Of a stretch of DNA of 64,000 bases, positions 1,045 through 64,000 are shown in pieces. This DNA is from an uncultured bacterium. Lineage in GTDB: Bacteria; Krumholzibacteriota; Krumholzibacteriia; LZORAL124-64-63. The position numbers were made by a program, and so were the translations under genes. The notes under the pieces are model-generated. The model did not search any database. It was not told where the DNA came from and was given only the letters and a program-made list of their open reading frames with translations. Each line of letters starts with the position of its first letter. Position 1 is the stretch's first letter. The stretch covers positions 1 to 64,000 of the forward strand of contig CAVSGO010000007.1 of assembly GCA_963727525.1 (NCBI GenBank), written 5' to 3'.

Positions 1045-1925
1045 GACTGGGACCGCCAGGGACTCGAACGACTGGTGCGCTACTGTGTGCGCCCGGCGCT
1101 GGCCGCCGGCCGTCTCGGTCGCCTCAACGCCGACACGCTGGTGTACCGCCTGCGCCGATCGCGATCGGATGGGCGCACGGAGATCCTGCTGAGCCCGCTG
1201 GAGTTTCTCGAGCGTGTGGTCGACCTGCTCGCCCCACCCCGCAAACATCGTCACCGGTACTGCGGCGTGCTGGCCCCAGGCGCGAAGCTGCACCGCGCGG
1301 TGACCGCGACGGCCGGTCCCGCCGGCACGGTGCTGCAGGCCCTCGACCGCGCGCGGGCGGCGATGGGGCTGACCGAGGTGACCGCACCGCGGCCGAAGGC
1401 GTCGCGCAGCTGGGCGCTGTTGTTGGCGCGCATCTACGATGCGCGGGCCTTGCAATGCCCCCGCTGCGGCGGTCCCATGACAATCATCGCGTTCATCCTG
1501 GACCCGGCGGTGATCAAGCGGATCCTCGACCACGTCGGGGTGGAGAGCGTGCCGCCGGCCGTGTTACCGGCGCGCTCACCACCGCAGGGGGAGCTGGAGT
1601 TCGCACAGGGGCCCGACGCGGTGGCGTGGGATGAGGTGGACCAAACGGCGGGCGTGTCGGACGCGGATTGAGATCCCCACAGAGTGAGGCGCCTGATGTG
1701 AAGGCCAGCGAGTCGGCCGAACGGAGAGGTCTGCGTCACGGCCGCGAAACCGGGCGCTCGAGGGCCGACACCCGCGACACGAGGCGGGCGCCGAGGCAAG
1801 ATCGCGGGGTTCACGGGCAAGTCGAGAGCGATCGATTGGCGAACATGTGGTACCATCGAAGGTATCGCGTCGGCGGAAGGGGGGAGCCGCGCTTCGCAAA
1901 GGTGGTCTGGAATGCCTATACTCCC
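1045..1925 (+). mobile_element. ISCR/IS91-like copy A: 3' half of transposase (to 1671) plus oriIS-like end (subtype 1, GGAATGCCTATACTCCC)
   Basis: ERLVRYCARP, CPRCGGPM, PARSPP motifs; CCTATA end resembles IS91/ISCR oriIS. Confidence 0.85.
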
Positions 1926-2266
1926 TGACGTGATGCATGACCAAGGTGGGCAGTTTCAAAAGCCGCTGGGCTGGTGACGGGATCTTCTGCATTTGAACGC
2001 CCGCCAGCACCAGTCGCTCGGATGTTCAAACTTTTCCTGGAATCTTTTGATAAAATATAAACACATCATAATATCTCATTGCACCACAATATTTTAGCAA
2101 TGTTTTTGGTTTGCGGATTTCTTTTTCCGCGGTAGCCTCCAGCCGGGATTTTCTGGGGCCCCAATACTCACGCCCAAAAAAAATGGAAAGGAGGATGTGC
2201 CGCCATCCGCCTATCACGAGCATGCCACAGTACAAAAGACCCATAGGCTTTCCGGAGGGAACGGCA

Positions 2267-4990
2267 ATGAAACAATTCGTGTTGATTGCGCTCGTCCTTA
2301 TGATCAGTCTACCAGCGTTGGCAGACAACGACTGGTGCCTTACTCCAACACCGCAAGTCGACTCACTCGCGGTCAGAAGCGTCGACTATCCGTACCCCCA
2401 CGAGATGAGCACAGCCGTCATTCGGTTCTACGCACACCGGCTTTTCCGTACGGACGGCAGCGGGGGCATCACAGAGGCGCAACTCGACGAACAACTCGAA
2501 TGGCTCTACGACGGCTTTGCGCAGTACAACATTCACTTCGTCGAGGCCGCGCGAGACACCTTCCACATCTCCTTCTATGACTCGGCGCTTGTCTTCGTGG
2601 GCGGCGGCATCTTCGATTTCATGGATAACCACAACCACACCGACGGTATTGATATCTTCGTCACCGAAGGGATCCACAACGTAAATTTAGGCGGTGCTCG
2701 AGAGGTCCCTGCGACGTCGCTGTTCCTTTCCGGGAACAGGATGTTCAATGAGGTAATTGTCCACGAAGTCGGCCACTGCCTTGACCTGTATCACACCTTT
2801 GAGACGCAGTTCGGCGTCGAGAACCCCGACGAATCAAACTGCGATGTAGCAGGCGATTTGATTTGCGATACTGCGGCCTGTCCTACAGGTGGCATCTACG
2901 AACCGTTGACAGATCCGGATACCTGCACGCTGACGTCACTGTTCCATCTGGTCTACCCAGACTACGACCCCGACCCGCACAACTACATGGTCTACGCGCC
3001 CATCCATTGCTTTGACAACTTCACCGACGAGCAACTGGCTCGGGTGTTCGCCAGCCTTGAGAATATACCTATTCTCCAGGCGGTGCTCGTTGATTCGGCT
3101 GTTCGCTTCGCCAACTACTCCGGCGACACCGGCCTCGATTACACCGGGGTACCGCGCAGTAGCGTGGGCTTCGACTACAACTACGATCCGCAGGCGCAGC
3201 GCAATCTCGAGGACCTGATGATAACGATCGCCGACAGCGCCGTGTATTCGGCGCTGTATGAAGCAACGGGCCTAAGCGAGAACAACATCCCAGAATTTGA
3301 TCGTGTTACAACCGAAGCGTTTGCGGTTAACAGACCATTAGTTGGTTTGGGAGGGGTATCGGTTGCCGATATGGACAATGACGGTGACCTCGACCTCTTC
3401 TGTGCATCGGGCACTTCGGAAACGCCCCACCTGTACGGCAACGATGGGGATGCTAGTTTTACCGACGTCACCGAGACGCTCGGCCTCGATGAAGCGGCAA
3501 CCAATAGCTGGGCTGGCGCCTGGGCCGACTACGACCGGGACGGATGGGTCGACCTCATGCTAATCCGCGGCGGCGAGCCGGAGGTAGACCCCGACGAAAT
3601 CGGAGCCGAGGAAAGTCTGCTCATGAGGAACGATCTCGACCCGGTTCTCGGCTCCGGAGTCTTCGAAGACGTGACGTCAGCCGCGGGCATGACGACCAGT
3701 GGTGCTAACGCTGCAGCCGCCCTAGCGGGTTGCTGGGGTGACATCAATGGCGATGGCCGCGCTGATCTCTACATCGCCGATTCGTGGCAGACGGTGGGGG
3801 CTCATGGGCGCCTCTTTGTGCAGCAAACCGACGGCACGTTCCTTGAGCAGTCGTCAAGCCGTCTACCAACCGGATCTCTTCTGTTCCAGACAGCGGCTAC
3901 TTTTGCAGACATGGACAACGATGGCGACTTTGACCTCGTTGTTGGGCAAAATTCGGACGATCAGGGGGCTTGGCAGACTGGCGCCACGGTCTACTTCAAC
4001 AATGGATCGGGGTATTTCACGTCCGAGTCGCCGGTTACCGTCCCGAATTTCGGCGGTGCGACAGGCCTTAAAGTCTGGGATCACGATCTCGATATGCGTC
4101 CGGACATCTTGCTGACGACGAAAGACAGTGGGCAGTCTTCACGGTTCTTCCACAATCTTCAGACCGAGAGCGGGCTTGCACTCAACGATGAGACCCACCA
4201 TGTAGGGCTCGATGATGGCTTTTCTGCCGGCGGTCTGACGGTACTGGACTGGAACCGCGATGGGGATAAGGACGTCTATCTCGGCCGTCCCGTGAGCACA
4301 GGAAAAGTCTTTTACCGAGCTGAGGACGATCAAAGCGACGACGATCTTGGCACAGACTTCATCTGCCTACGGCTGTCCTCGCCGCAAGGCGTGAACAACC
4401 GTGCCGGGATTGGCGCCGTGGTACTGGTTGAGATTGACAACGTTCTGCAGTGCCAGGTTGTCGATGGCGGCAGTGGCCGTGGCGGCCAGGACGACCTAGC
4501 GCTCACGTTTGCGGTTCCGGGTGCGTCCGGCACCTATCCCGTGGAGATTCATTGGCCCAACGGTTGGGTTCAGACGGCCTACGTGGCCGTTGACGACGTA
4601 GGCGAAGATCCGCAGATTATCGAGGACAACACCAACCCAACGGTCGTCAACACGTCAGTTGCGTTCAGTTCTTCGTATGATCCGAATCTGCAGCAGACGT
4701 ATTGGATCTTCACGTGGGAGACCGAATATCGCAGCGACTGGTCCCTCGATAAGGTCAACGTGTTGTCTTCGTCTTGCGGCGGGGCGGTGGAGTACACCGC
4801 CGGCTCAGGTGGAGTACAGCAAACGATCGCACGGCTTTCTACCGGCAAGTACCAGCACTCGCTGACGATTCCGGTCAATTGTAGTTCCCCGTGTACAATT
4901 CCCTACACCGTCACCAGCGCGCATCGAACCGGCATTTCGAGCACGAGCAGCCAGAAGTCGTTCAGAATTCAGTTCTGCGCCCAGCAGTAA
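2267..4990 (+). CDS. Secreted M43 (pappalysin-like) metallopeptidase fused to FG-GAP repeats and an ASPIC/UnbV-like domain
   Basis: GGAGG RBS and signal peptide; HEVGHCLDLYH zinc motif, NYM Met-turn; repeated DxDNDGDxD; NRAGIGAVV...QVVDGGSG. Confidence 0.8.
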   Translation: MKQFVLIALVLMISLPALADNDWCLTPTPQVDSLAVRSVDYPYPHEMSTAVIRFYAHRLFRTDGSGGITEAQLDEQLEWLYDGFAQYNIHFVEAARDTFHISFYDSALVFVGGGIFDFMDNHNHTDGIDIFVTEGIHNVNLGGAREVPATSLFLSGNRMFNEVIVHEVGHCLDLYHTFETQFGVENPDESNCDVAGDLICDTAACPTGGIYEPLTDPDTCTLTSLFHLVYPDYDPDPHNYMVYAPIHCFDNFTDEQLARVFASLENIPILQAVLVDSAVRFANYSGDTGLDYTGVPRSSVGFDYNYDPQAQRNLEDLMITIADSAVYSALYEATGLSENNIPEFDRVTTEAFAVNRPLVGLGGVSVADMDNDGDLDLFCASGTSETPHLYGNDGDASFTDVTETLGLDEAATNSWAGAWADYDRDGWVDLMLIRGGEPEVDPDEIGAEESLLMRNDLDPVLGSGVFEDVTSAAGMTTSGANAAAALAGCWGDINGDGRADLYIADSWQTVGAHGRLFVQQTDGTFLEQSSSRLPTGSLLFQTAATFADMDNDGDFDLVVGQNSDDQGAWQTGATVYFNNGSGYFTSESPVTVPNFGGATGLKVWDHDLDMRPDILLTTKDSGQSSRFFHNLQTESGLALNDETHHVGLDDGFSAGGLTVLDWNRDGDKDVYLGRPVSTGKVFYRAEDDQSDDDLGTDFICLRLSSPQGVNNRAGIGAVVLVEIDNVLQCQVVDGGSGRGGQDDLALTFAVPGASGTYPVEIHWPNGWVQTAYVAVDDVGEDPQIIEDNTNPTVVNTSVAFSSSYDPNLQQTYWIFTWETEYRSDWSLDKVNVLSSSCGGAVEYTAGSGGVQQTIARLSTGKYQHSLTIPVNCSSPCTIPYTVTSAHRTGISSTSSQKSFRIQFCAQQ

Positions 4991-4997
4991 AGGAGGG

Positions 4998-5870
4998 ATG
5001 GTTATGAGAAACACAAAACTGCTCGTCATCTGCGTCGCGCTTTTTGCACTAGTCGGTCAAGCGACGGCCGATCCAATCGCCATCAGTGGTGTGGTGGGCA
5101 TGAACCCGGTACCAGAAGGCGCCTACGCGGCCGTGTGGGTCCCGGTGCCGGCGGGCCAGGCTTTAGCCGGGCTGCGCTGGTATAACAACGACGTTCTCGC
5201 TGTCTTTCCTCAGGTACTCGTTGCCAGCGGTACGCCGGACGCGGTAGCAAGTCTTGCAAACGGGACCGTCGTCGCCACAAACGTAGAAGGCGACTCCTCT
5301 GAGTGGAGTCAAGTGACATTTGGTGGACCGTGCTTGGGCGAGGGTGAAGGACTTTACTGTCTGTTCGTCTTGCCGGATGGCGGCGGTTACGAATCCCCGG
5401 GTTACGGCGGTGGTGCCGCCTTTGGTTATGCGACAGAGGGCCCGAGTCAACCAAGCTGGCTGTGCGTCGAAGGGGAGACATGGACGAAACTCGACGGTGG
5501 CACCGGATTTGCCGTAGAACCGGTGTATGTGCCGGCACAGCCGGGCATGGTGCAACTATCGAGACCCGCGGGAACGGCGATAGAAATCGTCAGAAATCCC
5601 AGCTTTGGCCCGGCACATCCGAACCCTTTCAACCCGCAAACTGTGCTAGAATATTCGCTACCAGAGGCCCAGAGCATAGACTTGAGCATCTTCGATCTGA
5701 GCGGTCGTCTGGTGCGGCATCTGGACCAGGGTCAGCGCGCGGCGGGAGACCACAGCGTGGTGTGGCAAGGCAACGATGACCAAGGGCGGCGCCTTGCTAG
5801 CGGAACCTACCTAGCGCGGTTCACGGCTGGACGAATCTGTCAGACCCAGCGCCTAGTGCTGGTGAAGTAG
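4998..5870 (+). CDS. Secreted 'WYNND' protein with C-terminal FlgD-Ig/T9SS-CTD-like domain
   Basis: Signal peptide; PNPFNP...WQGNDDQGRRLASGTY...LVLVK; paralogs at 8937 and 26856. Confidence 0.8.
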   Translation: MVMRNTKLLVICVALFALVGQATADPIAISGVVGMNPVPEGAYAAVWVPVPAGQALAGLRWYNNDVLAVFPQVLVASGTPDAVASLANGTVVATNVEGDSSEWSQVTFGGPCLGEGEGLYCLFVLPDGGGYESPGYGGGAAFGYATEGPSQPSWLCVEGETWTKLDGGTGFAVEPVYVPAQPGMVQLSRPAGTAIEIVRNPSFGPAHPNPFNPQTVLEYSLPEAQSIDLSIFDLSGRLVRHLDQGQRAAGDHSVVWQGNDDQGRRLASGTYLARFTAGRICQTQRLVLVK

Positions 5871-5882
5871 GTTAACTAGAAA

Positions 5883-5913
5883 ACTGGAGCGGGGCACACC
5901 GCCCCGCTCCAGT
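5883..5913. terminator. Perfect 13-bp stem-loop between genes (terminator or mRNA-stabilising hairpin)
   Basis: ACTGGAGCGGGGC-ACACC-GCCCCGCTCCAGT; no clear U-tract on +. Confidence 0.55.
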
Positions 5914-5924
5914 CGGGGGCTATC

Positions 5925-7094
5925 ATGGCCAAGCAATGCACCATTCTCGTGATCTTAACGCTGCTGTCCTCGCCATCGCCAACTTTTGCGCGTACCTGGC
6001 ACGTAGAAAAAGATGGCAGCGGGGATTTTGCCGTGATCTACGAGGCGCTCGATGCAGCGGTAGCTGGTGACACTATCCAGATAGGCGCGGGGCGCTTTGA
6101 GGAATATCGCCGAGAAACGGACTATTTGTGGGAGGCGTACTGCTGTGCACACGTCACGACACCGAACCTAACCATTCGCGGACTTGGCGCAGAAGTATCT
6201 ATTATTGGACTAGACCACTTTGATCCGCACTTCGAACACTACGTTATTGGGATTTCGTGCAATCACAATGATCTCACGGTCGAAGATTTGACAGTGAATG
6301 GCGTTCATGAATGCATCCACTTTGAAGGCCCAAACCTTCACGCGCGAGACTGTTATTTTTCCGACTGCAACATGGGAGTCAGCACATGGAGCGAGACAAG
6401 CACTATTCTACAGAGATGTCGCATTATCGGGGCGCAAAGCCGGGGCGTTTTTGGTGCACATGCCAATGGTGTTTCGATTACAGATTGCGAGCTGTTTAAT
6501 GGAGTTCATTTTGCTGTATCCGCTGTCGGAGGCAATGGGTGGGTAGTTAGAGACACAGAAATTCACGATTATGCGGGGGGCATGCACTTCGAGAGCCTAG
6601 CCACAGGGATTGTCGAACGGTGCCATGTGCAGGTGGTAGAGGGCAATAGCCCAGCTGTGGAGTGTATGGATGGCGCGACAATGCTGTTGTTAGACAACGT
6701 ATTTGAAAGCGACCTGTGGGCGGGTTTTTTTGGCACCAATGGAACGATCACCACGGCCACAAACAATGTATTTCTCGGTGGCTCGTATACGGCGATCGAG
6801 GTGGCATATTCGCCGATGGATTTTCATGGGAATCATCTCATAAGTCGCGGCGGTCTGTCCGTGGCTGCTCTTTGGTTGCGGGGTGGCCTGGAGCAGCCAT
6901 ATGACTTGGATCTAACAGGTAACTATTGGGGCACAGATGATCCGGCGCAAATCGAGACCTGGATCGACGACTATAACGATCATTCCCCGATGGACAACCT
7001 ACACTTCGTTATCGTCCGCTATGCCCCCTTCGCCGACCAGCCAGTCGAGACGGAAGCTACTACATGGGGGGCAGTCAAAAGTCTGTTCCGATAA
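5925..7094 (+). CDS. Secreted right-handed beta-helix protein with TWGAVKSLFR tail
   Basis: RTWHVEKDGSGDF...AGDTI start, beta-helix-like repeats, NYWG motif. Confidence 0.75.
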   Translation: MAKQCTILVILTLLSSPSPTFARTWHVEKDGSGDFAVIYEALDAAVAGDTIQIGAGRFEEYRRETDYLWEAYCCAHVTTPNLTIRGLGAEVSIIGLDHFDPHFEHYVIGISCNHNDLTVEDLTVNGVHECIHFEGPNLHARDCYFSDCNMGVSTWSETSTILQRCRIIGAQSRGVFGAHANGVSITDCELFNGVHFAVSAVGGNGWVVRDTEIHDYAGGMHFESLATGIVERCHVQVVEGNSPAVECMDGATMLLLDNVFESDLWAGFFGTNGTITTATNNVFLGGSYTAIEVAYSPMDFHGNHLISRGGLSVAALWLRGGLEQPYDLDLTGNYWGTDDPAQIETWIDDYNDHSPMDNLHFVIVRYAPFADQPVETEATTWGAVKSLFR

Positions 7095-7221
7095 ATAGCA
7101 TTGGATCAGTGACCTCTTGCGTGTCGAGCAAACGGTCTGCCCTAGTCCGCCATGATCCGGTCGTAGTTCCCTTGGACGTCATCGATGCTCTCGGTGCCAT
7201 AGAGGTCAACCGGATGACGTA

Positions 7222-7493
7222 GAGTTTCTTTCGCACATTCGTTGAGAGGTGGCCCTCGATCTGGTCTACTAGCGGTTAACCACAACCCTTGGAAGACCGG
7301 AGAAGGAGGACCACCCATGGATGAGGATAGCAAAAGGCTGGCGGATGTCATCAGCATTGACCAGGATCAGCTCAAGGGCCATGTCGGGGAGATCGTGCGC
7401 AGCACGGTGGAACAAACGCTCAATGGCCTTCTGGATGCCGAGGCCGATCGCCTTTGCAGGGCTTCACGATACGAGCGCAGTCCGGATCGGCAG
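7222..7493 (+). pseudogene. IS256-family left end and N-terminal transposase fragment (ATG 7317), cut by IS3 element
   Basis: VRSTVEQTLNGLLDAEADRLCRASRYERSPDR is IS256-like; IR-like GAGTTTCTTTCGCACATT. Confidence 0.75.
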
Positions 7494-8696
7494 CGTAAGC
7501 TTCCCCACATAGAGAACCAGCGTAAAGTAGAGCTTTCTGGCATAATGTGAGCCAGGAGGTTCTGATGAAGAAGTCTCAGTTCACGGAGGAGCAGATCATC
7601 GCGATCCTCGCGGAATCCGATTCCGGACGTGCCGTGCGCGAGGTCTGCCGCGAGCATGGGATCAGCCCTGCGACCTACTATCAGTGGAAGTCAAAGTACG
7701 GCGGCTTGGAGGCCTCGGATCTCAAGCGGATCAAGGAACTCGAGTCGGAAAACGCCGAGCTAAAGCGGATGTACGCTGAGACGAGCCTCGAACGCGACGC
7801 GCTCAAGAGGCTGCTGTCAAAAAAACTGAAAGGCCGCTAGACCGTCGAGAAGCCGTGAGGTGTCTGGTGGCCGAAGAGAAGATTTCGGTGAGACGAGCAT
7901 GCGACCTCGTAGGATTGTCGCGATCGGCGTGGTATAGCGAGCCACAGGATCGCCTGGCTCGCGATCGTGAGGTCATAGATGCGCTGCAGACGGTGGTCCA
8001 GAAGCACCGTCGCTGGGGATTCTGGAAGTGCTTCTCGCGCCTGCGCCAGCAAGGCGAGACGTGGAATCACAAACGGGTCTATCGGGTCTACAAGGAGCTC
8101 GGGCTAAACCACAAGCGGCGAACGAAGAGGAGACTGCCAAAGCGGCCCGCGGCGACGATGGACGTACCCGCGCGCCCCAACGCCGTCTGGTCACTCGATT
8201 TCGTCCACGACACCCTGTACTGCGGTCGGAGATTCAGGACGTTGAATGTCATCGACGAGGGCGTGCGGGAGGCGCTAGCGATCGAGATCGATACGTCGCT
8301 GACAGCGGCCCGAGTCGTGCGGCTGATGGGACAGCTGAAGGACTGGTACGGGCTGCCTGAGGCGATCCGGTGCGACAATGGCCCCGAATTTCTGAGCGCC
8401 GTGTTTGTTGCTTGGTGCGAGGAGAACGGCGTCGAGCTGCGATACATCCAACCCGGCAAGCCAAACCAGAATGCGTACGTCGAGCGGTTCAACCGGACCT
8501 ACCGGGAAGAGGTGCTGAGCGCATACCTGTTCGACGACCTGGACCAGGTCCGCGAGATCACCTGGGAATGGCTGCAGGAGTACAACGAGGTAAGGCCACA
8601 CGACTCGCTGGGGCAGTTGCCTCCGGCGGTCTATCGAAGGACGCTGACAGCCGGAAACTCTACTTTCAATCGGTCCGCTTGACGGGGAAGCTTACG
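7494..8696 (+). mobile_element. IS3-family element (IS407-like): orfA 7565-7840, orfB to 8682, A7 frameshift site at 7819-7825
   Basis: Inverted ends CGTAAGCTTCCCC / GGGGAAGCTTACG; MKKSQFTEEQII, WSLDF, CDNGPEF, QNAYVERFN; no target duplication. Confidence 0.93.
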
Positions 8697-8915
8697 CTAT
8701 TACCGGGCGGTATGTTGCCGAATCCCTACGTTGTAACGGGTACAACCACTTTAACAAGTCTAGGTAGCGGTCAATTTCGCCACACATGGACTCTACATAA
8801 CGTCGTATGTTCGGCGCCACGCAAGGTTAATTGCAAGATCGAGTCGTGGCTTGGCAACTACCAGGCGACAGGCGAAGTTAACTACAAGGCGAGTTTTTGC
8901 CTGCAAGGATCATAG
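8697..8915 (+). pseudogene. C-terminal remnant of a paralog of the 2267-4990 protein
   Basis: LGSGQFRHTWTLHNVVCSAP...ASFCLQGS aligns by eye with LSTGKYQHSLTIPVNCSSP...IQFCAQQ; same position upstream of a WYNND gene. Confidence 0.6.
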
Positions 8916-8936
8916 CGCGAGACTGGAGGGAATATC

Positions 8937-14966: not shown

Positions 14967-15359
14967 AGCGGCCTTCATAATTGACGGCCAGCATGTGTGG
15001 GACCTATCCTGACCGATCGCGGCGATCGCTGAGAGGAATGCCGCAGGGCAGCAAGTGATCGGGATCGACGGGGGATCATGCCTCGACGTCCGTACTTTCT
15101 CGTCATCCGCCCCCGCCCATCGCGGTCGTGTTGCTCTACGTCCATGCCGTGCCCCGGCCGACACCGCATGGCCGCTGCCGGGACATGGCGCATCACTATC
15201 TCGGCGGGCTCGAGGTGCGCAACGCGATGCGGGGAGTCGGGCCCACCGGCCTGGACAACGTGTTGCGCGAGGCCGATCTCTATCCACCCGGCCACTCGGT
15301 CGGTCTCGGCACCTGGCTGCTGGTGTTCGGCGAATCGGCCGAATCGTGGCGCCTCTTCG

Positions 15360-16064
15360 GCTGGTCGATCTTCTCGCCCCACCGCGCAAGCATCGCCACC
15401 GCTACTGCGGCGTGCTGGCCCCGGGTGCGAAGCTGCGCCGGGCAGTGACCGCGACAGCCGGCCCTGCGGGCACAGTGCGGCTGGCCGTCGACCGCGCGCG
15501 GGCAGCCATGGGGTTGGCCGAGCCGACCGAACCGCGGCCGACGGCTTCGCGCAGCTGGGCGATGCTGCTGGCGCGCATCTACGACGTTCGGTCTCTGCAA
15601 TGCCCCAGATGCGGAGGCCCCACGACGATCATCGCCTTCATCCTGGACCCGGCGGTGATCAGACGGATACTCGAACACCTCGACCTGGAGAGTGAGCCGC
15701 CGCAGGTGTTGCCGGCGCGCTCACCACCGCAGGGCGAGTTGGAGTTCGCACAGACCCCGACCACAGTGACGTGGGACGAGGTGGACCAGACGGCGGGCGT
15801 GCCGGACGCAGATTGAGATCCGCCCCGTGAGGCAAGAGCAGCCGCAGCCGGGGAGCCGGCCGATCGCAGAGGTCTGCGTTCTCGACGCGAAATCGGCGGT
15901 CAGCGGGTCGTCAAACACGATGCGATCCGGCCACGATGGTCATGTCGCAAGGTCTACGGACACTGCGAGCGCGATCTCGTCGCGAAGAGGTAGTAGAATC
16001 GAGATATCGCGTCGAGGGCTCGGCGAGACGAACGTCAAAAAGGGCGGCAGAAATTCCTATCCCC
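15360..16064 (+). mobile_element. ISCR copy C: 5'-truncated transposase (stop 15816) plus oriIS subtype 2 (GGCAGAAATTCCTATCCCC)
   Basis: Apparently identical to the 3' part of copy I. Confidence 0.9.
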
Positions 16065-18457: not shown

Positions 18458-18852
18458 CCCGCCGCCCACCTCGACGACTCGGCCACCGCGCGCGTCCGCG
18501 ACCAGCTCCGCCACCGCGGCCTGCGCTGGCTCGTGAACACGGCCATCTCGACGCCGCCGCCGCCGGCGAGATGCGCACCTGGCAGCACGGCGGCGGCTGG
18601 TCCGTGCACGCGGCTGTGCGGATCGCCGACTGGGATCGCCAAGGCCTCGAGCGCCTGGTCGATCTACTGGTTCTCGACGCGAAATCGGCGGTCAGCGGGT
18701 CGTCAAACGCGATGCGATCCGGCCACGATGGTCATGTCGCAAGGTCTACGGACACTGCGAGCGCGATCTCGTCGCGTAGAGGTAGTAGAATCGAGATATC
18801 GCGTCGAGGGCTCGGCGAGACGTCGAAAAGGGGGTCAGAAATTCCTATCCCC
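18458..18852 (+). mobile_element. ISCR copy D: doubly internally deleted mini-element with oriIS subtype 2
   Basis: HLDD...DWDRQGLERLV joined to DLL, then to the 3' non-coding end GGTCAGAAATTCCTATCCCC. Confidence 0.85.
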
Positions 18853-18953: not shown

Positions 18954-20262
<1,309 letters not shown>

Positions 20263-21083: not shown

Positions 21084-21230
21084 CTAGAGATGTAATTTGA
21101 TTGTGGCGGCAATTTGTCGTTGCTCTTCAATCGAAATTACTTTGTAGTCCTTCTGGAGAAATCGACGGTCTGGTCGCTGTCTTTGTATCGATGAACAACG
21201 TGCACGTGAAAATGAGGCTCGTGCTGCCCG
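21084..21230 (-). pseudogene. HIT-family protein C-terminal fragment (frameshifted) cut by the copy E end
   Basis: Manual translation GQHEPHFHVHVVHRYKDSD (HxHxHxx), continuing in another frame to ...IAATIKLHL*. Confidence 0.6.
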
Positions 21231-21713
21231 CGTATAGGTCAAACAGACCACGTTTTCGGAACCCCTCCCCCACATGGCGCCGACTCGCGCGCTCGATTCT
21301 ACCACACTTTTGCCGCGCCTTCGCATGAGAGTCGTCCGTGAACCTCGCGACACGCCCGTTGTGAGCGGATCGAGGCGTCATTCCGCGGTGCCAATCGCCA
21401 GATTTCCTCGCCGCCGCGCAGACTGCTCCCACCGGCCGACTGTCGGGCCTCGCCCCTTGACGATTCCGAAGCTCGGGTTCTCAGTCCGCGTCCGGCAGGC
21501 CGGCTGTCTGATCCACCTCGTCCCAGATCACTGGACCGCTCGCCTGCGCGAACTCCAGTTCTCCTTGCGGCGGTGAGCGCGCCGGCAACGTGGCCGGCGG
21601 CTCACTCTCCAGATCGAGGTGATCGAGGATCCGCTTGATCACCACCGGGTCCAGGATGAAGGACAGGATCGTCATCGGACTACCGCAGCGCGGGCATTGC
21701 AAAGGCCGCGCGT
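21231..21713 (-). mobile_element. ISCR copy E: transposase C-terminal end plus oriIS subtype 3 (GTTTGACCTATACG)
   Basis: Near-identical to the ends of copies F, G and H. Confidence 0.9.
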
Positions 21714-38560: not shown

Positions 38561-38587
38561 CTTCCTGTTATTCGCATCACGTCCGCC

Positions 38588-46900: not shown

Positions 46901-47014
46901 GATGGAACCGGCAGCATCTTCTGTTTCACCCTGCCCCGTCATTCCCAAGCTGTCACGCCACGGTCCGAGGAGGAACGCGGTCATGAGACCCATGAATACG
47001 ATCCTGGTCGTTGA
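43973..47014 (+). CDS. GAF/PAS sensor histidine kinase
   Basis: GAF, three PAS-like units, [22 protein letters not shown]. Confidence 0.92.
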
Positions 47015-48074
47015 CGACGACCCGATCAATATCGACATCGTCCAGGAGACCCTTGGCGAATGCTGCCGCGTGCACGTGGCGCACGATGGCGAAACCGCAC
47101 TCGCGGCGCTCCCGCAAGTGCGACCCCACATCGTCTTGCTCGACATCATGATGCCCGGAATCGACGGCTATGCCGTGTGCCGCGCTATCCGCGAGGACCG
47201 TCGTCATGCCGCCATCAAGATCATCCTCTTGAGTGGGCGCGCTTCCATCCAGGAACGCCTCGAGGGCTATGCGGCGGGTGCTGACGACTACATCGTCAAA
47301 CCGTTCGTCGACGACGAGCTGCTCGCCAAGGTCCGGGTCTACACGCGCCTCAGCCGCACCGAGGAAGTCGACGAACTGAAGAGCGATCTCTTGAAGCTCT
47401 TCTCCCATGAGACCCGCACGCCCTTGAACGCGATCCTCGGGCTCTCGGAAGTCATCAAGGACGACAGCCGCGTGCCCCCGGACGTCCGTGACCTCGCCGA
47501 CGACATCAAGTTGAGTGGCCGTCGCCTCCTTGAGTTCTTCCGCAAGGCACAGCTACTCTTCGACATCAAGAAGGGCGCCGACTGGGAATTGCAGGAGGAC
47601 TCGTTCGGAGATCGGGCATTGGCCTGGGCCGATGATCTCCATCAGACACTCCAGGCTGGTCGGATCGAGCTCGATGTGACGGGCGACCCGACTCTGATGG
47701 CCAACTGGGACCTGCTCGCCGAGGTATTTCGCGCGCTCGTCGAGAACGTGTGGAAGTTCGCCGACCGCAGCACGACGGCCGAGGTCACGGTCCGCGGTGA
47801 CGCGGATTCCGTCGTCCTCGAGGTCGCCGATCGCGGCCCGGGCGTCAACGCCGGCAAACACGAGGAGATCTTCGAACCCTTCACCGTGCAGGACATCGCT
47901 CATCACGGGCAGGGTCAGGGCCTGAGCCTTGCCATCGCCCGCGAGATCGCGTTGCTCCACGGTGGCGATCTCACCGTTCGCGATCGACCTGGCGGCGGGG
48001 CCATCTTTCGGCTCGTGTTGCCCACCAGACTCGAGGCCGGCGCGGAAACGCTCACCGCGACACGGACGCGGTGA
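46983..48074 (+). CDS. Hybrid response regulator-histidine kinase
   Basis: ILVVDDD, LLDIMMP, KPF; SHETRTPL; GQGLSLAI. Confidence 0.9.
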   Translation: MRPMNTILVVDDDPINIDIVQETLGECCRVHVAHDGETALAALPQVRPHIVLLDIMMPGIDGYAVCRAIREDRRHAAIKIILLSGRASIQERLEGYAAGADDYIVKPFVDDELLAKVRVYTRLSRTEEVDELKSDLLKLFSHETRTPLNAILGLSEVIKDDSRVPPDVRDLADDIKLSGRRLLEFFRKAQLLFDIKKGADWELQEDSFGDRALAWADDLHQTLQAGRIELDVTGDPTLMANWDLLAEVFRALVENVWKFADRSTTAEVTVRGDADSVVLEVADRGPGVNAGKHEEIFEPFTVQDIAHHGQGQGLSLAIAREIALLHGGDLTVRDRPGGGAIFRLVLPTRLEAGAETLTATRTR

Positions 48075-48792
48075 GCGCCGCCACGAGCAGGTCGGCGAGA
48101 CTCTGACTCGAACGCGGGTTCTGGCCGGTGATCAGCTCGCCGTCGCGGACGACGTGATCGGCGAAGTCGGTGCCGGGCAGGAACCTCGCGCCCAGGCTCG
48201 TCAGCTTCTGCTGCAGCGAGAAGGGCACGGCGTCCTGGAGCTGCGCCGCCACCTCCTCGGCATCGGTGAACGACGTCACGCGCTTGCCCCTCACCAGGGG
48301 CGTGCCGTCGGCGAGGGTGGCGCCCACGAGCGCCGCGGGGCCGTGGCAGATCGCGGCCACGATCTTGCCCGAACGCGCGAAGTCGCTCACCAGGGCGGCC
48401 ACCGCCGGATCGACGGCGAGGTCCATCATCGCGCCATGCCCGCCCGGGACGAAGAGGGCGTCGTAGTCGGCGGCGCGGTAGGAGTCGTCGAGCTTCGCGG
48501 TCTGTCCCAGCTCGTCGATCGCCGCTCCCCAGTCGTCGCGTTGCACGGCCGACGGCTCGCTACGCGGATCGATCGGCACCTGTCCCCCCAGCGGGCTGAC
48601 CACGGTGACGTCGACCCCCGCTCCGCTCAGCGCCACGTACGGCACCGCGAACTCCTCGAGCCACAGCCCGGTGGGATGGCCGTCGGGAAAGTGATCGGCA
48701 CTGGTGGTCAGGATGAGCACGCGCGGTGCGTCGGCCGCGGCCAGCGGTGCGAACAGGGCGACGAGCAGCAGGGACACCATCATCCGGCGCAT
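48052..48792 (-). CDS. DJ-1/PfpI (type 1 glutamine amidotransferase-like) protein with signal peptide
   Basis: TGLWLEE, PGGHG, AICHGP, LITGQNP. Confidence 0.9.
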   Translation of the reverse strand: MRRMMVSLLLVALFAPLAAADAPRVLILTTSADHFPDGHPTGLWLEEFAVPYVALSGAGVDVTVVSPLGGQVPIDPRSEPSAVQRDDWGAAIDELGQTAKLDDSYRAADYDALFVPGGHGAMMDLAVDPAVAALVSDFARSGKIVAAICHGPAALVGATLADGTPLVRGKRVTSFTDAEEVAAQLQDAVPFSLQQKLTSLGARFLPGTDFADHVVRDGELITGQNPRSSQSLADLLVAALTASVSR

Positions 48793-48874
48793 GGCGAGCC
48801 TTTCCGTTCAGGCCGGGAGAGTGCGACGAACAGGCACAGGATAACGTCGGTCGGCGAGAACTCCACGGCAGCGC

Positions 48875-49447
48875 TCAGTACAGATCGATGCCGGCCGTGA
48901 ACGTCCACTGGTGGCTGGCGCCGTCGTCGAGCGGCGCTCGGTCGAGGTTCGAGCCGTAGTCGAGCGCGGCGTGGAGGCCGTGGTAGGCGTCGAAACGGTG
49001 ACGTAGCCCCGCGCCCCATGCCCAGCCGTCCTCCCAGCTAGAGTCCGTGTGCGTGTGGCTGCCGCGCAGCGTGACGACCTGGCCATAGGTCATCTCGATA
49101 CCGATCGCGGTGCTGGCGAACGACGGGCGGTGATCCTCGAGATCGTCTCGCCAGGCGAGCAGGACGCGGGTGACCAGAGGTCGTGCTCCGCGAACGGGAT
49201 GACCGAGCGCGGCCACACCGCCAATCCCGAATCGGTAGTGGCGAAAGAATGTCGCGCTGGGGAGACCATTGACCGATCCCTCCAGCAGGTTGCGCACGCT
49301 CGCCGTGCCCACGAGGCGAAGGGCGACATCCTCGGTGGTCGCGAACGGCCCGGACACGGTCAGGCCCAGATCGGGGCAGAACACGTCGTCGCCGGATCCG
49401 CCGATGTCGAGGGTGTACTGCTTGAGGCTGGCCCCGATGCTCAGGTG
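48875..49447 (-). pseudogene. C-terminal part of an outer-membrane beta-barrel (PorV-like), decapitated by the copy I end
   Basis: LSIGASLK, DLG, GIEMTY...LRG, WGAGL, alternating terminal strand ending in Y. Confidence 0.5.
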
Positions 49448-51678
49448 GGGGATAGGAATTTCTGCCGCCCTTTTTGACGTTCGTCTCGCCGAGCCCTCGA
49501 CGCGATATCTCGATTCTACTACCTCTTCGCGACGAGATCGCGCTCGCAGTGTCCGTAGACCTTGCGACATGACCATCGTGGCCGGATCGCATCGTGTTTG
49601 ACGACCCGCTGACCGCCGATTTCGCGTCGAGAACGCAGACCTCTGCGATCGGCCGGCTCCCCGGCTGCGGCTGCTCTTGCCTCACGGGGCGGATCTCAAT
49701 CTGCGTCCGGCACGCCCGCCGTCTGGTCCACCTCGTCCCACGTCACTGTGGTCGGGGTCTGTGCGAACTCCAACTCGCCCTGCGGTGGTGAGCGCGCCGG
49801 CAACACCTGCGGCGGCTCACTCTCCAGGTCGAGGTGTTCGAGTATCCGTCTGATCACCGCCGGGTCCAGGATGAAGGCGATGATCGTCGTGGGGCCTCCG
49901 CATCTGGGGCATTGCAGAGACCGAACGTCGTAGATGCGCGCCAGCAGCATCGCCCAGCTGCGCGAAGCCGTCGGCCGCGGTTCGGTCGGCTCGGCCAACC
50001 CCATGGCTGCCCGCGCGCGGTCGACGGCCAGCCGCACTGTGCCCGCAGGGCCGGCTGTCGCGGTCACTGCCCGGCGCAGCTTCGCACCCGGGGCCAGCAC
50101 GCCGCAGTAGCGGTGGCGATGCTTGCGCGGTGGGGCGAGAAGATCGACCAGGCGCTCGAGGAACTCCAGCGGACTCAGCAGAATCTCCGTGCGCCCGTCC
50201 GGACGCGGTCGGCGCAGGCGGTACACCAGGGTGTCGGCGTTCAGGCGTCCGAGGCGGCCGGCGGCCAGCGCCGGGCGTGCACAGTAGCGCACCAGGCGCT
50301 CGAGGCCTTGGCGATCCCAGTCGGCGATCCGCACAGCCGCGTGCACGGACCAGCCGCCGCCGTGCTGCCAGGTGCGCATCTCGCCGGCGGCGGCGGCGTC
50401 GAGATGGCCGTGTTCACAAGCCAGCGCAGGCCGCGGTGGCGGAACTGGTCGCGGATGCGCGCGATGGCCGAGTCGTCGAGGTGGGTGGCGGGGTGAAAGA
50501 TCGCCGCATCCGGGTCTGCGGCGTCGCGGCTGAAGACACCGTCAGTCACCAGAACGTGGAAGTGGACGTGGCTGTTGAGGGCGTCACCGAAGCGGTGCAC
50601 GAAGAGCATGGCGCCGAACTGGGCGTTGCGGGGCGAATCAGGGCTCGCATGGCGCAGTGTCGTTTGCACGGCCCGCAGGAAGACCCTGCCCAGGCCGTCG
50701 ATGACCTCGGGTTTGGTCTTCAGGAACCAGCGCACTCGCTTGGGCATCGACACCACCCACTGGCGGTACGGGACCCGGGGCAGGACATCGTCGACGAGAT
50801 GGGCGGCTGTCTCCACCATCCGGCGTGTGCCGCACGCGGGGCACAGGTCACCGACCTTGCAGGAAAACGGAACCAGGAACTCGTGCTTGCAAGACGCACA
50901 GCGGACGCGAGCGAAGCCATGGGCCGGGATGCCGCAGCGCAGGTACTCGCGCAAGGCGCGGTCGGCGGCCGGACGCACCGGGCGCAGATCGGGATCGTGG
51001 GATCGGGCCAGGGCGAGGAACGTCTCGAGGTGCTCGCGCACGGTGCGGTGCATGACCGTGGCGGCGGGCTGGCGGGGACGGTAGATGGCGGTGCAGGTGG
51101 CGGTGTCGGTGGCCGAAGGCATGGTCGCCTGCCGTCGCCTGGGGGCGTCGGGAGGCGGGTGATGCCGTCAATGGTGGGAGACGGGAGGGATCGCGCACGG
51201 AGCGCGAACGCCGGAGATGCATGTCGCGGGCCTCGCTTCGGCGACAGGGGACGAAAGTCATGTCACGTCGCCGCTGGTCAGCGACGGTCGATGAGCACCA
51301 GCAAGCTGCGGATGTAGTCGCTGCCCACCCAGGTGTGGGGCATGTCGCCGATGAAGTGGGCGGTCTGCGGATTGTGCCATACCACCTCGGGCCACTGGCG
51401 CCAGCCGACGGGGGTGCGGTGGGCGAGAAAGAACGTGAGCGCCTCTCGAGCGCGATCGTCCCAGCCCAGGCCCGCGAAGGCGCCGATGTTGCGGATCTCG
51501 TACGGCGTGAACGCATCCCATGGCGCGCCGTCGCGGCGAGCGGTGAAGAAGTCCCAGTATTTCTCGAAGGTGGCCTCGAGGGCGCCGGGGGGCAGGATGG
51601 CGCGGGCCTGGCAGGGGTCGAGGGCGATGGTGGTGGAGGTGGCGTCGAAGTCGCCGAGGTCGGCGCAACCGGGAATGT
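49448..51678 (-). mobile_element. ISCR copy I: near-complete, oriIS subtype 2, includes a longer captured GH tail (51278-51678)
   Basis: As for copy H but with a different transposase allele and ori subtype. Confidence 0.9.
49696..51122 (-). pseudogene. ISCR-type HUH transposase with a -1 frameshift near 50415
   Basis: GTGAACACGG versus GTGAAACACGG in copy H; all catalytic motifs present. Confidence 0.9.
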
Positions 51679-55457: not shown

Positions 55458-56176
55458 GGGGATAGGAATTTCTGACCCCCTTTTCGACGTTCGTCTCGCC
55501 GAGCCCTCGACGCGATATCTCGATTCTACTACCTCTTCGCGACGAGATCGCGCTCGCAGTGTCCGTAGACCTTGCGACATGACCATCGTGGCCGGATCGC
55601 ATCGTGTTTGACGACCCGCTGACCGCCGATTTCGCGTCGAGAACGCAGACCTCTGCGATCGGCCGGCTCCCCGGCTGTGGCTTCTCTTGCCTCACGGGGC
55701 GGATCTCAATCTGCGTCCGGCACGCCCACCGTCTGGTCCACTTCGTCCCAGGTCACGGCGGTCAGGGTCTGTGCGAACTCCAACTCGCCCTGCGGTGGTG
55801 AGCGCGCCGGCAACACCTGCGGCGGCTCACTCTCCAGGTCGAGGTGTTCGAGTATCCGTTTGATCACCGCCGGGTCCAGGATGAAGGCGATGATCGTCAT
55901 GGGGCCTCTGCATCTCGGGCATTGCAGAGACCGGACGTCGTAGATGCGCGCCAGCAGCATCGCCCAGCTGCGCGAAGCCTTCGGCCGCGGTTCGGTCGGC
56001 TCGGTCAATCCCATCGCTGCCCGCGCGCCGTCGAGGGCCTGCCGTACTGTGCCCGCAGGGCCGGCCGTCGCGGTCACTGCCCGGCGCAGCTTCGCGCCCG
56101 GTGCCAGCACGCCGCAGTAGCGGTGGCGGTGCTTGCGCGGTGGGGCGAGTAGATCGACCAGGCGCTCGAGGAACTC
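55458..56176 (-). mobile_element. ISCR copy K: 5'-truncated transposase plus oriIS subtype 2
   Basis: EFLERLVDLL...PDAD plus GGTCAGAAATTCCTATCCCC. Confidence 0.9.
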
Positions 56177-58061: not shown

Positions 58062-58516
58062 GCGAATGACCTGCACGCGGGCGGGCCATGGCGATCTCGC
58101 CATGGTCCCTCGCGTGCGCATCCCCCGGAAAGGGAATGCCGGGCGCGCTCGCTCTGGCGCGAACGACCCCGTGGTCCCTGTCGAGTATTGGCGCTCACGC
58201 CGATCTCGGCTATGCCAGAGACCACCGCCAGCAAGGACGCGCGAGGGCATGCCGCACGGTCACGACCTCGATCCACCGATCACCCGCATCACCGAGGTCC
58301 GCTCGGAATACACATCGGCGCGGCTGATCTGCGCCAACCTCGCGTACCGGCTCGCGGGCACCCGCTATCAGCGCGCGCCGGGCTACCTGCCGGCAGAGAT
58401 CGATTTTCCTCGACCCGACGGCAAGCTGGCGACGCTCGAGGTGCGCGACTACGACGTCCGCCATCTCGACCGCGTCGCGAAAGGCCGCGCGGTTCGTCGG
58501 GGCCGGACCTCGTCTG

Positions 58517-59662
58517 ATCAGCGGCGGTCGATGAGTGTCAGCAAGCTGCGGATGTAGTCGCTGCCCACCCAGGTGTGGGGCATGTCGCCGATGAAGTGGG
58601 CGGTCTGCGGATCGTGCCATACGACCTCGGGCCACTGGCGCCAGCCGGCAGGGGTGCGGTGCGCGAGGAAGAACGCGAGTAGCTCCTGGGCGCGGTCGTT
58701 CCAGCCCAGGTGGACGAAGGCGCCGATGGTGCGGATCTCGTAGGGCGTGAACGCCTCCCATGGGGCGCCGTCGCGGCGAGCGGTGAAGAAGTCCCCCAGT
58801 ACTTCTCAAAGGTAGCGTCGAGAGCGCCGCGGGGCAGGATGTCGCGGGCCTGGCAGGGGTCGAGGGCGATGGTGGTGGAGGTGGCGTCGAAGTCGCCGAG
58901 GTCGGCGCAGCCGGGGATATAGGGGATGTTGTGCGCTTTCATCGCGGCGGCGATGGAGGCGCCGAGGTCGGTGGCGAAGCGGTCGCGCAGGGTGGCCAGT
59001 CGTGCCTGCTGGGCGGGGTCGCCCATGGCGGTGGCCAGGTCGACGGCGTCCTTGTAGCCGCGCAGGGCCCAGAAGTCGTCCCAGTAGGAGTGCATGGGCT
59101 TGGCCGAGTAGCCCTCGTGGCTGATGTTCGGCGGGAGGATGCCGTAGAACTCGGTGCCCGCGAACTCTGGCGTGCGGCGCTCGTCGAGCAGGCTCTCGAG
59201 GTAGGCGATGCCGTTCAGCACGCGCGGCCACATCGCGGTGAGCACGTCGCGGTCGCCGGTGGTGCGCCAGTACTCGGCGACCAGGAAGATGAACTCGCCG
59301 GTGGAGTCGTGCTCGGGCACGGGGTCGGCGCCGCGGCGATCGACGACGCAGGGGATCTTGCCGTTCTCGTACTGGTGGGGCGCGAACCAGAGCAGGAAGT
59401 CGCGTGCCGCGTCGGTGAAGCCCAGGCGCAGCAGGGCCTCGCTCGTGAGGGCGCCGTCGCGGATCCAGCTACGCGCGTAGGCGCAGGTGCCCGGCTGGAT
59501 GGCCGGACCCGCGCGGTTGACCAGGATGAAGCCGAGCTGGGCCTTCAGCGTGAGCAGTGCGTCTTCCATTCCAGGCGGCGCGACCAGGTCGACGCGTGCC
59601 AGTTTTCCCTCCCAGCAATCGGTGGCGGCGCGGGTCACCGATACGGGATTGACGGGCTGCAT
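58517..59662 (-). pseudogene. (alpha/alpha)6 glycoside-hydrolase-like gene fragment, frameshift near 58795; diverged relative of the GH tails in copies H and I
   Basis: YARSWIRDG, PVPEHDSTGE, SHEGYSAKPMHSYWDDFW, GDMPHTWVGSDYIRS. Confidence 0.75.
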
Positions 59663-59831
59663 CGGCGAGGTTGGCTCGTCTGATGGTCTTGGGTACTGTC
59701 GCGGCCGTCGCCGGACAGAGTGGTTCCCCGCGATGTCAACGATCGTCGCGTCCGGGGTTACGCGGCTTCGCGGTAGTACCGGCTATGTAACCCACCCAGA
59801 AATTGGCGGCGTCTCACCGGCCCAACGTCGT

Positions 59832-60870
59832 CCATCTCGACGAAGCCGCCATCACGCGCGGCCGCGATCAGCCCGTCACCGCGGACTGCGCTGGCTCGTG
59901 ACGCACGGCCACCTGGATGCCGCTGCCGCCAGCGAGATGCGCACCTGGCAGCACGGCGGCGGCTGGTCCGTGCACGCGCAGGTCAGGATTGCCGATTGGG
60001 ACCGCCAGGGCCTGGAGCGACTGGTGCGTTACTGCGCGCGACCCGCCCTGGCCGCCGGCCGCCTGGGCCGCTTGAACGCCGACACCCTGGTGTACCGCCT
60101 GCGCCGCCCACGACCGGACGGCCGCACGGAGATCCGGCTGAGTCCGCTGGAATTCCTCGAGCGCGTGATCGACTTGCTCGCCCCACCACGCAAGCACCGC
60201 CATCGGTACTGCGGCGTGCTCGCTCCAGGAGCGAGGCTGCGCCGGGCGGTGACGCAGACCGCCGGTCCCGCCGGCACGGTGCTGCTCGCGCTCGATCGCG
60301 CCAGGGCTGCGATGGGCATGGCGGACGCGTCCGAGCCGCGCCCCAAGGCGTCGCGTAGCTGGGCGATGCTGCTGGCGCGGATCTACGACGCGCGGCCTTT
60401 GCAATGCCCACGATGCGGCAGCGCGATGACCGTCCTGGCGTTCATCCTGGACCCGGCGGTGATCAAGCGGATCCTCGATCACCTCGATCAGGAGAGTGAG
60501 CCGCCGGTCACATTGCCGGCGCGTTCACCGCCGCAGGGAGAACTGGAGTTCGCGCCGGCGAGCGGTCCAGTGATCTGGGACGAGGTGGATCAGACAGCCG
60601 GCCTGCCAGACGCGGAATGAGAACCCGAGCTTCGGAATCGTCAAGGGGCGAGGCCAGACAGTCGGCCGGTGGGAGTGGTCTGCGCGGCGGCGAGGAAATC
60701 TGGCGATTGGCACCGCGGAACGACGCATCGAGCCGCTCACAACGGGCGTGTCGCGAGGTTCACGGGCGATTCTCATGCGAAGGCGCGGCAAAAGTGTGGT
60801 AGAACCGAGCGCGCGAGTCGGCGCCATGTGGGGGAGGGGTTCCGAAAACGTGGTCTGTTTGACCTATACG
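59832..60870 (+). mobile_element. ISCR copy L: 5'-truncated transposase (stop 60620) plus oriIS subtype 3 (diverged variant)
   Basis: Same motifs; ends GTTTGACCTATACG, 6 bp from the kinase stop codon. Confidence 0.9.
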
Positions 60871-60876
60871 CTCACG

Positions 60877-63720: not shown

Positions 63721-63865
63721 GAGGTCTCCTGGGGAGCGACGGCGGTCCGGATCGTGGCCATGGCCAAGCACCGTGCGCGGCGGATCCGCGCACGGTGCTG
63801 CTTCAATATTATTGTATTGATCTTATCATGATTGTTGTGCCGCGGCAATGCCGCGGAAATCCACC

Positions 63866-64000
63866 CGGTGACGCCCTCAACAGCCACGTCCACTTCCACG
63901 TTCTGGTGACTGACGGTGTCTTCATCCGCGACGCCGCAGACCCGGACGCGACGATTTTCCACCCCGCCACCCACCTCGACGCGGCCGCAGCCAGCGAGAT
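63866..64000 (+). mobile_element. ISCR copy M: 5'-truncated, internally deleted fragment running off the window
   Basis: GDALNSHVHFHVLVTDGVF...PATHLD joined to AAAASE. Confidence 0.85.

Follow-up and report, generated by a model that had tools for sequence, protein, structure and literature searches.

An array of 5′-truncated, origin-anchored IS91/ISCR-like elements in the genome of an uncultured Krumholzibacteriota bacterium

Copies of the element in the window

We analysed a 64-kb stretch of DNA (hereafter, the window) that forms the start of contig C7, the largest contig (2.37 Mb) in the assembly of an uncultured bacterium of the Krumholzibacteriota (GCA_963727525.1; 4.66 Mb in 8 contigs, 67% GC), and that is densely occupied by mostly partial copies of an insertion sequence (IS) related to IS91 and ISCR. 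An original prediction, made from the sequence of the window, had listed 12 pieces of one HUH transposase family here, and all 12 were recovered at the listed positions by repeat finding, by BLASTN with two full copies and by an nhmmer profile built from 17 copies (Table 1). Ten of these (A, C, D, E, F, G, H, I, J and L) keep the complete 3′ end, as predicted: all stop abruptly at one common point, 251 bp beyond the stop codon of the transposase gene; the reach of copy A to position 1924 was revealed by the nhmmer profile. Elements of this family are described as starting transposition at an origin (oriIS), displacing one strand back through the transposase gene and stopping at a terminus (terIS) or elsewhere, with a missed stop carrying adjacent DNA along (PMC13181058, PMC5714925, PMC5737581). 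We refer to the shared 3′ end as the origin end.

H and I are the full-length copies in the window, B and M keep neither end, and eight of the ten origin-keeping copies (A, C, D, E, F, G, J and L) are truncated at differing points on the side of the transposase start. The lengths given in the original prediction agree closely with those measured (395, 411, 484, 707, 719, 881, 889, 1040, 2117 and 2231 bp), except that H and I each end on the 5′ side in a captured gene fragment, of 327 and 446 bp, respectively, that does not belong to the IS. Every transposase gene in the window is broken, those of H and I by one frameshift each. According to the nhmmer profile, the array runs on to about 102 kb of contig C7.

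Table 1 Copies of the IS91/ISCR-like element and associated features in the window
Feature	Position	Strand	Description
Copy A	1044–1924	+	Origin-anchored, 5′-truncated, 881 bp; divergent subfamily; 5′ break abuts DDE-transposase IS (gene 40–849)
Copy B	11349/11442–11690	+	Internal fragment with internal deletion; no end kept
Copy C	15358–16064	+	Origin-anchored, 707 bp; 99.9% identical to origin-side part of I, inverted relative to I
Copy D	18458–18852	+	Origin-anchored composite: mid-gene piece plus last ~190 bp; internal deletion
IS3 beside D	19004–20232		ALIL frameshift site; begins 3 bp past the end of D
Copy E	21230–21713	−	Origin-anchored, 484 bp; 5′ break fused to IS3 truncated inside orfB (21714–22266)
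Copy F	24487–24897	−	Origin-anchored, 411 bp
Copy G	25968–26856	−	Origin-anchored, 889 bp; 99.8% identical to H; 5′ break gives the first base (A) of the ATG start codon of a gene for a secreted protein with an FlgD_ig tail (26856–27752)
'Sandwich' cargo	26857–39969		Low GC (0.58), between G break and H origin end; IS21 (33192–35551), HNH, P63C and VasI-like genes
Copy H, IS proper	39970–41759	−	~1.79 kb; origin end at 39970; one frameshift, zinc-finger region; chimera
Captured glycosidase-like 3′ end on H	41760–42086	−	With 45-bp downstream spacer; 100% identical to the same piece in I
Copy I, IS proper	49448–51232	−	Second subfamily, ~88% identical to H, last 250 bp unalignable; one frameshift
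Captured glycosidase-gene 3′ end on I	51233–51678	−	119 bp longer than in H; fused to DUF5122 propeller gene without its own stop codon
Copy J	55458–56176	−	Origin-anchored, 719 bp, I type; AT-rich divergent intergenic region between PF00144 serine hydrolase and GEVED–FlgD_ig genes
Glycosidase-like paralogue fragment	58511–59782	−	Frameshifted, 87% identical to C3:407297–409498; outside IS; relative of the piece on H and I
Copy L	59832–60871	+	Origin-anchored, 1040 bp, 93% identical to H; origin end 6 bp from stop of opposite-strand Ser/Thr kinase–TPR gene
Copy M	63866–64698 (window part to 64000)	+	Fragment without both ends

Polarity of truncation and clustering

The truncation is strictly polar throughout the genome. 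The 59 genome-wide nhmmer matches resolved into 4 full copies, 18 origin-only copies, no terminus-only copy and 24 internal loci, together with 3 matches to glycosidase-like genes. The predicted polarity is thus upheld (18 origin-anchored versus 0 terminus-anchored truncated copies), with a two-sided binomial probability of 8e-6, although copies that share descent would not be independent. Origin-anchored extents vary almost continuously from 87 to 1117 profile columns, and none reaches into the first ~700 columns; the 5′ ends are mildly bunched (6 neighbour pairs within 15 columns, P about 0.015). Seven loci are composites, in which a mid-gene piece is joined to a short origin piece.

The same pattern recurs in G192, a 4-contig genome of another genus, the element of which is only 67% identical and was searched for with G192's own full copy. 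Among the candidates scored (40 of 426 first-look candidates), 12 matches yielded 2 full copies, 5 origin-only copies (3 of them composites), no terminus-only copy and 2 internal pieces. One-ended fragments from these two genomes of different genera thus number 23 with the origin and 0 with the terminus. For the short copy in G192, the two flanks matched a congener on separate contigs and at a distance of over 1 kb, which is uninformative. In a further genome, G141, C-terminal fragments lie beside a near-full copy, and a search for loci related to the transposase gave five loci from metagenome-assembled genomes, which were weakly informative.

Several of the short copies are young: C to I, G to H and a 657-bp copy in G192 are each 99–100% identical to a full copy, the last at 100% to a full copy 3.7 kb off in the same orientation. 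In every origin-anchored copy, homology stops exactly at the origin tip.

Mapping of copies across the genome, proposed in the original prediction as a check on clustering, showed that they are clustered. The IS91 mask covers 20,866 bases genome-wide (including ~1 kb of glycosidase-gene paralogues), and 13,195 of these (63%) lie in C7:1–100000, that is, in 2.1% of the genome; the remainder is found mostly close to the distal end of C7 and to contig ends on C3 and C8. The commonest IS of the genome, by comparison, is dispersed: this 1.18-kb element (C4:80856–82034) has 24 further copies, 96–99% identical, over contigs C2, C3 and C5–C8. An equal density of the IS91-like copies everywhere is therefore refuted, and a chance origin of the array is excluded by this concentration together with copy identities of 76–100% over hundreds of bases.

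Capture of upstream DNA and recombination between copies

The additional DNA on H and I (327 and 446 bp, respectively) derives from a glycosidase-like gene, of which it holds the 3′ end with the stop codon, followed by a 45-bp spacer; the gene has a long paralogue at C3:407297–409498. For their first 394 bp, glycosidase-gene end included, H and I show 100% identity, beyond which they diverge, and their outer limits are nested; the captured piece is absent from the C5a and C8 copies. At subfamily-diagnostic sites, H is I-like to about position 395, mixed to about position 520 and C5-like thereafter, such that the I-like part of its IS proper is the first ~67 bp on the terminus side and the rest is C5a-like. 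The glycosidase-gene end shared by H and I and the switch from I to C5 type within H show two events: an ancestor overran the far end and took upstream DNA with it, and homologous recombination between subfamilies made at least one of the two copies, H, a chimera. The shared gene end is direct evidence of read-through capture, and recombination between copies has also shaped the locus. The piece at 58511–59782, which is absent from the list of the original prediction, was considered as a terminus-end fragment ('K') and ruled out, as it is a paralogue of the glycosidase-like gene.

Copies C (15358–16064) and I (49448–50154) form near-identical inverted repeats 33 kb apart, a substrate for inversion of the intervening stretch with copies D to H.

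Transposase and element ends

An intact copy on contig C5 (C5:7414–9176; 98.3% identical to H) carries a transposase gene of 475 residues. The encoded protein matches Pfam Y2_Tnp (124.6 bits; cut-off, 20.9) and Zn_Tnp_IS91 (70.7 bits; cut-off, 26.3), both of which are also encoded by the long copies in the window, and NCBIfam NF033538 IS91 (129.3 bits; cut-off, 125). Its top NCBIfam match is ISCR clade Ia, at 237 bits far under the cut-off of 925; the element is a distant relative that falls outside that clade. The transposase has the HUH motif HVHFHVL and, in tblastn searches against plasmids, is 33.5% identical to ISVsa3/ISCR2 and 30.4% identical to ISCR1 over 91–92% of its length. The motif LERLVRY here corresponds to LERLCRY in annotated ISCR1 and ISVsa3 (ISCR2), and the Tyr is invariant in all four aligned sequences. 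An Arg lies four residues before this conserved Tyr (RLVRY); the equivalence of the position with IS91, for which the two-tyrosine motif is given as Y249 and Y253 (PMC5714925, PMC13181058), rests on the published numbering. The predicted membership of the IS91/ISCR family with RxxxY accordingly stands, LERLxRY being common to ISCR1 and ISCR2; that this motif marks the ISCR type is the statement of the prediction.

The origin end reads ...GTGGTCTGTTTGACCTATACGC in H-type and ...GGCAGAAATTCCTATCCCC in I-type copies, both 251 bp past the stop codon. For the comparison with ISCR, the tips ...GTCTGTTTGACCTATACGC and ...CAGAAATTCCTATCCCC, ending 251 bp after the stop, were set beside the annotated loci of ISCR1, which ends in GGTGGTTTATACTTCCTATACCC / ...GGTTTATACTTCCTATACCC 232 bp past the stop, and of ISCR2, which ends in GGGCGTTTATTCTTCCTATACG / ...CGTTTATTCTTCCTATACG about 234 bp past the stop. 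The common end motif, ...CCTATAC(G/C)C, resembles both tips; given this motif and the similar distance past the stop, the end is an oriIS of the ISCR kind. Comparison of H and I with the C5 and C8 copies places the start of the element proper near GGCCCGCGAC.TGCA, ~110 bp before the start codon, which gives a length of ~1.76–1.79 kb; a relative of the element in another genome measures 1756 bp. The two ends, ...CCTATACGC at the origin and GGCCCGCGAC.TGCA... at the opposite side, show no relation to each other; there are no terminal inverted repeats, and no target duplication was found at the flanks of the ten window copies and two off-window copies, in agreement with the original prediction. 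IS91, IS801 and IS1294 are reported to use a target tetranucleotide, GTTC/CTTG, beside oriIS (PMC5714925, PMC13181058). Neither GAAC nor CAAG (the GTTC/CTTG type) was found beside the origin in any of the 12 origin flanks, and the element thus lacks this canonical feature of IS91 proper. The intact C5 copy could act in trans on E, F, G, H and L, the origin ends of which are identical.

Features within and beyond the origin end were also surveyed. A consensus fold of 14 origin ends was almost structureless (−1.4 kcal/mol), and single folds of four origin ends were no better than those of shuffled sequences (z = −0.6 to +1.2); a 4-bp stem (GGTC/GACC) beside the H-type tip was seen by eye only. 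A sigma-70 scan of 39800–40300 found no outward promoter. About 75 nt inside the origin tip is a box, GCGAAA.TGTGGTAGAATCGA (39995–40045, and at the same place in other copies), that is conserved across copies otherwise 55–80% identical; it holds an outward-facing TGn-TAGAAT string, with no full promoter in the sigma-70 scan. In 7 of the 10 window copies, the first gene outside the origin points away from the element, which is not significant.

Junctions and flanking DNA

Where the copies end, the flanking DNA is in several cases itself broken. The breakpoints of A and E abut other ISs, in line with the original prediction (Table 1), and the IS3 fused to E continues past the break point in one metagenome contig. 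Unrelated flanks, claimed in the original prediction for each copy with two identifiable sides, are clear from truncated genes at I, E, G and the C8 copy, but the evidence is weak at H and J, which sit in divergent intergenic regions (H is flanked by a VasI-like gene and a chemoreceptor gene with divergent starts), so that simple insertion is possible for both. I meets, at its origin end, the C-terminal 190 codons of an outer-membrane-barrel gene, the N-terminal half of which is nowhere in the assembly. A search of 90 other genomes from the same family turned up no donor loci. GC content steps at A (0.70|0.54), E (0.64|0.43) and G (0.56|0.68). At 8 of the 10 window 5′ breaks examined, the flanking base differs from the lost parent base, so that no base is shared (C is ambiguous; F and B are unscored). 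One copy in G192 breaks beside CTTG, which we treat as chance.

The copy on contig C8 has its origin end fused to a transposase gene (IS256-like by eye) at codon ~14, and 4.5 kb that are 99.98% identical to window 7359–2869 follow; the missing continuation is not on the other side of the junction. The 4491-bp stretch occurs twice at this identity, at window 2869–7359 and C8:263094–267584, and encodes FG-GAP/M43, FlgD_ig and beta-helix proteins and the start of the IS transposase gene. Its second copy forms the very end of contig C8, starting exactly at the IS91 origin end, and the pair may reflect either recent duplication or a structural variant that coexists with the assembled form. In the window, what seems by eye to be the N terminus of an IS256/mutator-type transposase (7317–7490) is interrupted by an IS3 (7490–8705) with ends ...TAAGCTTCCCC / GGGGAAGCTTA.

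The genomes compared include no relative of the same genus, and within this set both the native-looking stretch at 42087–49444 and the low-GC stretch at 26857–33191 gave domain-level or IS-end matches only. Four metagenome runs of one study hold 5–8% of the sampled words; their short contigs cover parts of IS3 and IS91 copies only and bridge no junction, and so have no bearing on the correctness of the assembly.

Other repeats were also noted. A 1.9-kb repeat (98% identity) at 29049–30952 and C2:4985–6889 contains a 400-residue open reading frame (29565–30767) without a Pfam or NCBIfam match and may be an unrecognized mobile element; weaker copies lie at the start of C5 and beside an IS3 on C3. 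C4:1858–5287, near the start of that contig, is a tandem array with a 573-bp period, and the end of C2 and the start of C3 overlap by 3 kb at 91% identity.

Origin of the array

On balance, we consider that the window is probably the densest part of a plasticity zone colonized by an ISCR-like branch of the IS91 family, in which early-terminated rolling-circle events were a main product and were subsequently reshuffled. Transposition would start at oriIS and run back through the transposase gene; an early stop would give origin-anchored copies that lack the 5′ part of the gene and form a continuum of 85 to about 1100 bp, many with a further internal gap, and an overrun of the far end would drag upstream DNA along, as for the glycosidase-gene 3′ end on H and I. 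The products would land nearby and pile up locally, and recombination between copies, deletions and insertions of other ISs would then scramble the zone, with the consequence that many copies would now be found at the seams of compositionally different, partly truncated gene segments. Early-terminated events are the simplest account because of the 23:0 polarity, the young short copies and the exact origin tips, and one-ended transposition is reported to make up 1–14% of events in IS91 and IS1294 (PMC13181058). We infer that early termination, rather than later deletion, made the short copies, and that cargo segments, if any, may have entered through the element.

Several observations weigh against this account. 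No conserved tetranucleotide (of the GTTC/CTTG type or other) is present at the truncation points in any of ten window copies, and no empty site was found in the genome set compared. The 18 origin-only copies may share descent and would then not be fully independent. The junctions are those of the assembly, and at least four of them (the two flanking I, and those at E, G and the C8 copy) are not simple insertions of a short product, so that secondary events must be invoked. For IS801, moreover, most natural fragments are attributed in the published account to reorganization and not to one-ended transposition (PMC3189936).

This last judgement also favours pure decay, in which full copies inserted normally and the truncations, seams and mosaics arose by later deletion, recombination between copies and the action of other ISs, the mechanism of transposition being irrelevant to the polarity. 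Other ISs are abundant in the zone (three IS3 copies, one of them truncated, an IS21, a DDE IS and an IS256-like stub), H is a recombinant and 24 loci keep neither end. Random decay, however, should leave terminus- and origin-anchored pieces in about equal numbers, against counts of 18:0 here and 5:0 in G192, and is hard to square with short copies as young as those described above and with homology that ends at the origin tip in every case; we consider it unlikely as the whole explanation. Less likely still are repeat-induced chimeric joins in a metagenome-derived or long-read assembly. The window does begin a contig, IS91 pieces are densest close to the ends of several contigs, C8 terminates in a duplicate of window 2869–7359 that is possibly an unresolved variant, and no run with the source reads was found. 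Yet the assembly consists of only 8 contigs, and the 24 further copies of the 1.18-kb IS were resolved inside contigs; the IS91 pieces are short (0.1–2.2 kb), differ from each other (76–100% identity) and have unique flanks; and the same polar pattern is seen in G192, an independent genome.

The gene-capture array of the original prediction takes each stretch between two successive, like-oriented oriIS copies (E, F, G, H, possibly also I and J) for a mobilizable cassette. Such units would be excised as circles and added beside an existing origin, either through the action of the transposase or through recombination with a copy already in place, and the locus would have grown stepwise into an integrase-free capture platform. 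The arrangement of the window lends this some appeal: E to J are six consecutive copies in one orientation, with 3 orientation runs among the 12 copies (P = 12/924, 0.013), and G (889 bp), 13.1 kb of low-GC DNA and the full copy H follow one another as expected if a circle of origin piece and cargo had recombined with a resident element. The same sandwich is found in G192, copies lie at GC-content steps (A, E and G), and the C8 junction, where an origin end meets an internal point of an IS transposase gene, is of the circle-closure type. A 'sandwich' is likewise described for a resistance gene that lies between a remnant ISCR28, with its oriIS, and a full element (PMC12772301, citing other work). 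Against this, no origin-to-origin unit occurs twice in the genome, and the segments between copies are unique except for IS pieces, 2869–7359, 29049–30952 and paralogues; the accretion of cassettes is therefore conjectural. The break between truncated transposase gene and cargo lies inside each unit and is left unexplained by the model, A, C, D and L point the opposite way, and no donor loci are found among the 90 family genomes.

Nor is the cargo enriched in secreted or surface proteins relative to the genome, as had been claimed: FlgD_ig-type domains number at least 150 genome-wide (150 of 248 first-look candidates were scored), from which 2–3 would be expected per 64 kb, and 4 were seen. 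The domain, with which at least 150 proteins of the genome end, appears to be the organism's general C-terminal sorting tag. Growth by cassettes is therefore rather doubtful as an account of the locus. Its fullest form seems quite unlikely: that the short remnants with an origin have a working role, in which a second, like-oriented oriIS would serve as stop and docking site for a transposase acting in trans, and that origin-to-origin units are stacked like integron cassettes without an integrase, as a chromosomal capture array in an uncultured bacterium of the FCB group. The description as a candidate new platform was also overstated, as such behaviour is already described for IS801 and ISCR (PMC3189936, PMC12772301). 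We retain early-terminated transposition followed by reshuffling as the probable origin of the array.

Comparison with known systems

Among the closest known elements are ISCR1 and ISCR2/ISVsa3, with which the element shares an HUH transposase (zinc domain at the N terminus, LERLxRY motif), an oriIS tip (...TTCCTATAC(C/G)) ~230–250 bp past the stop, and the lack of inverted repeats and of target duplication. Variable DNA abutting the origin end and truncated copies beside cargo are likewise described for ISCR (PMC11239352, PMC12772301). The element differs in its protein identity of 30–34% and in lacking an insert of ~50 residues found in ISCR1 and ISCR2. It is also chromosomal, in an uncultured environmental bacterium, has no link to integrons or resistance cassettes, and is present in many copies of at least three subfamilies in one genome.

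The products also resemble those of IS801 of Pseudomonas syringae, for which experiments are reported to have given right-end fragments of 229, 360 and 679 nt in 26% of transposition events, along with full copies carrying 290–1431 nt of upstream DNA (PMC3189936). Both product classes are found here, as 18 origin-anchored copies and as H and I with 327 and 446 bp of an upstream gene. The IS801 miniatures are reported to start at a tetranucleotide like that of the left end, a signal without counterpart here, and in P. syringae genomes only 5 of 17 fragments have the right end alone (PMC3189936), compared with 18 of 18 one-ended fragments that keep the origin here. Composites with internal gaps are frequent in the element described here, in a further difference from IS801. 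The IS91-flanked catabolic gene clusters of the sphingomonad Sphingobium herbicidovorans MH are described as likewise having several subtypes, a conserved terminal region, bracketed imported genes and circles that include cargo (PMC5737581); in that organism the circles were seen by mobilome sequencing and the cargo serves a clear, selected function (PMC5737581), whereas the array reported here is known from sequence and its cargo is miscellaneous.

Truncated ISCR beside cargo, outward effects of the oriIS region, IS91-bracketed catabolic clusters and IS801 miniatures are thus in print already (PMC11239352, PMC6218425, PMC5737581, PMC3189936), and ISCR-type transposition is stated in one of these accounts to be not yet shown experimentally (PMC6218425). 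The array is a real feature that reflects already described IS91/ISCR behaviour; it is neither a new class of mobile element nor a new gene-capture system.

Helitrons have a Rep–helicase fusion, and their protein architecture is unrelated to that of the element, so that the resemblance is one of working principle only. This principle is HUH rolling-circle transposition in which flanking DNA is captured when the stop signal is missed, as described for Helitrons (PMC5714925). Compared with these systems, the array offers a clean natural record of IS91/ISCR behaviour outside the clinic (23:0 polarity, near-continuous lengths and frequent internal gaps), a pattern that supports early-terminated rolling-circle events as a main product of the family and not a laboratory oddity. 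Its main value is as a natural data set, in which one intact ISCR-like transposase and many identical origin ends provide a tractable system for testing ISCR-type enzymes.

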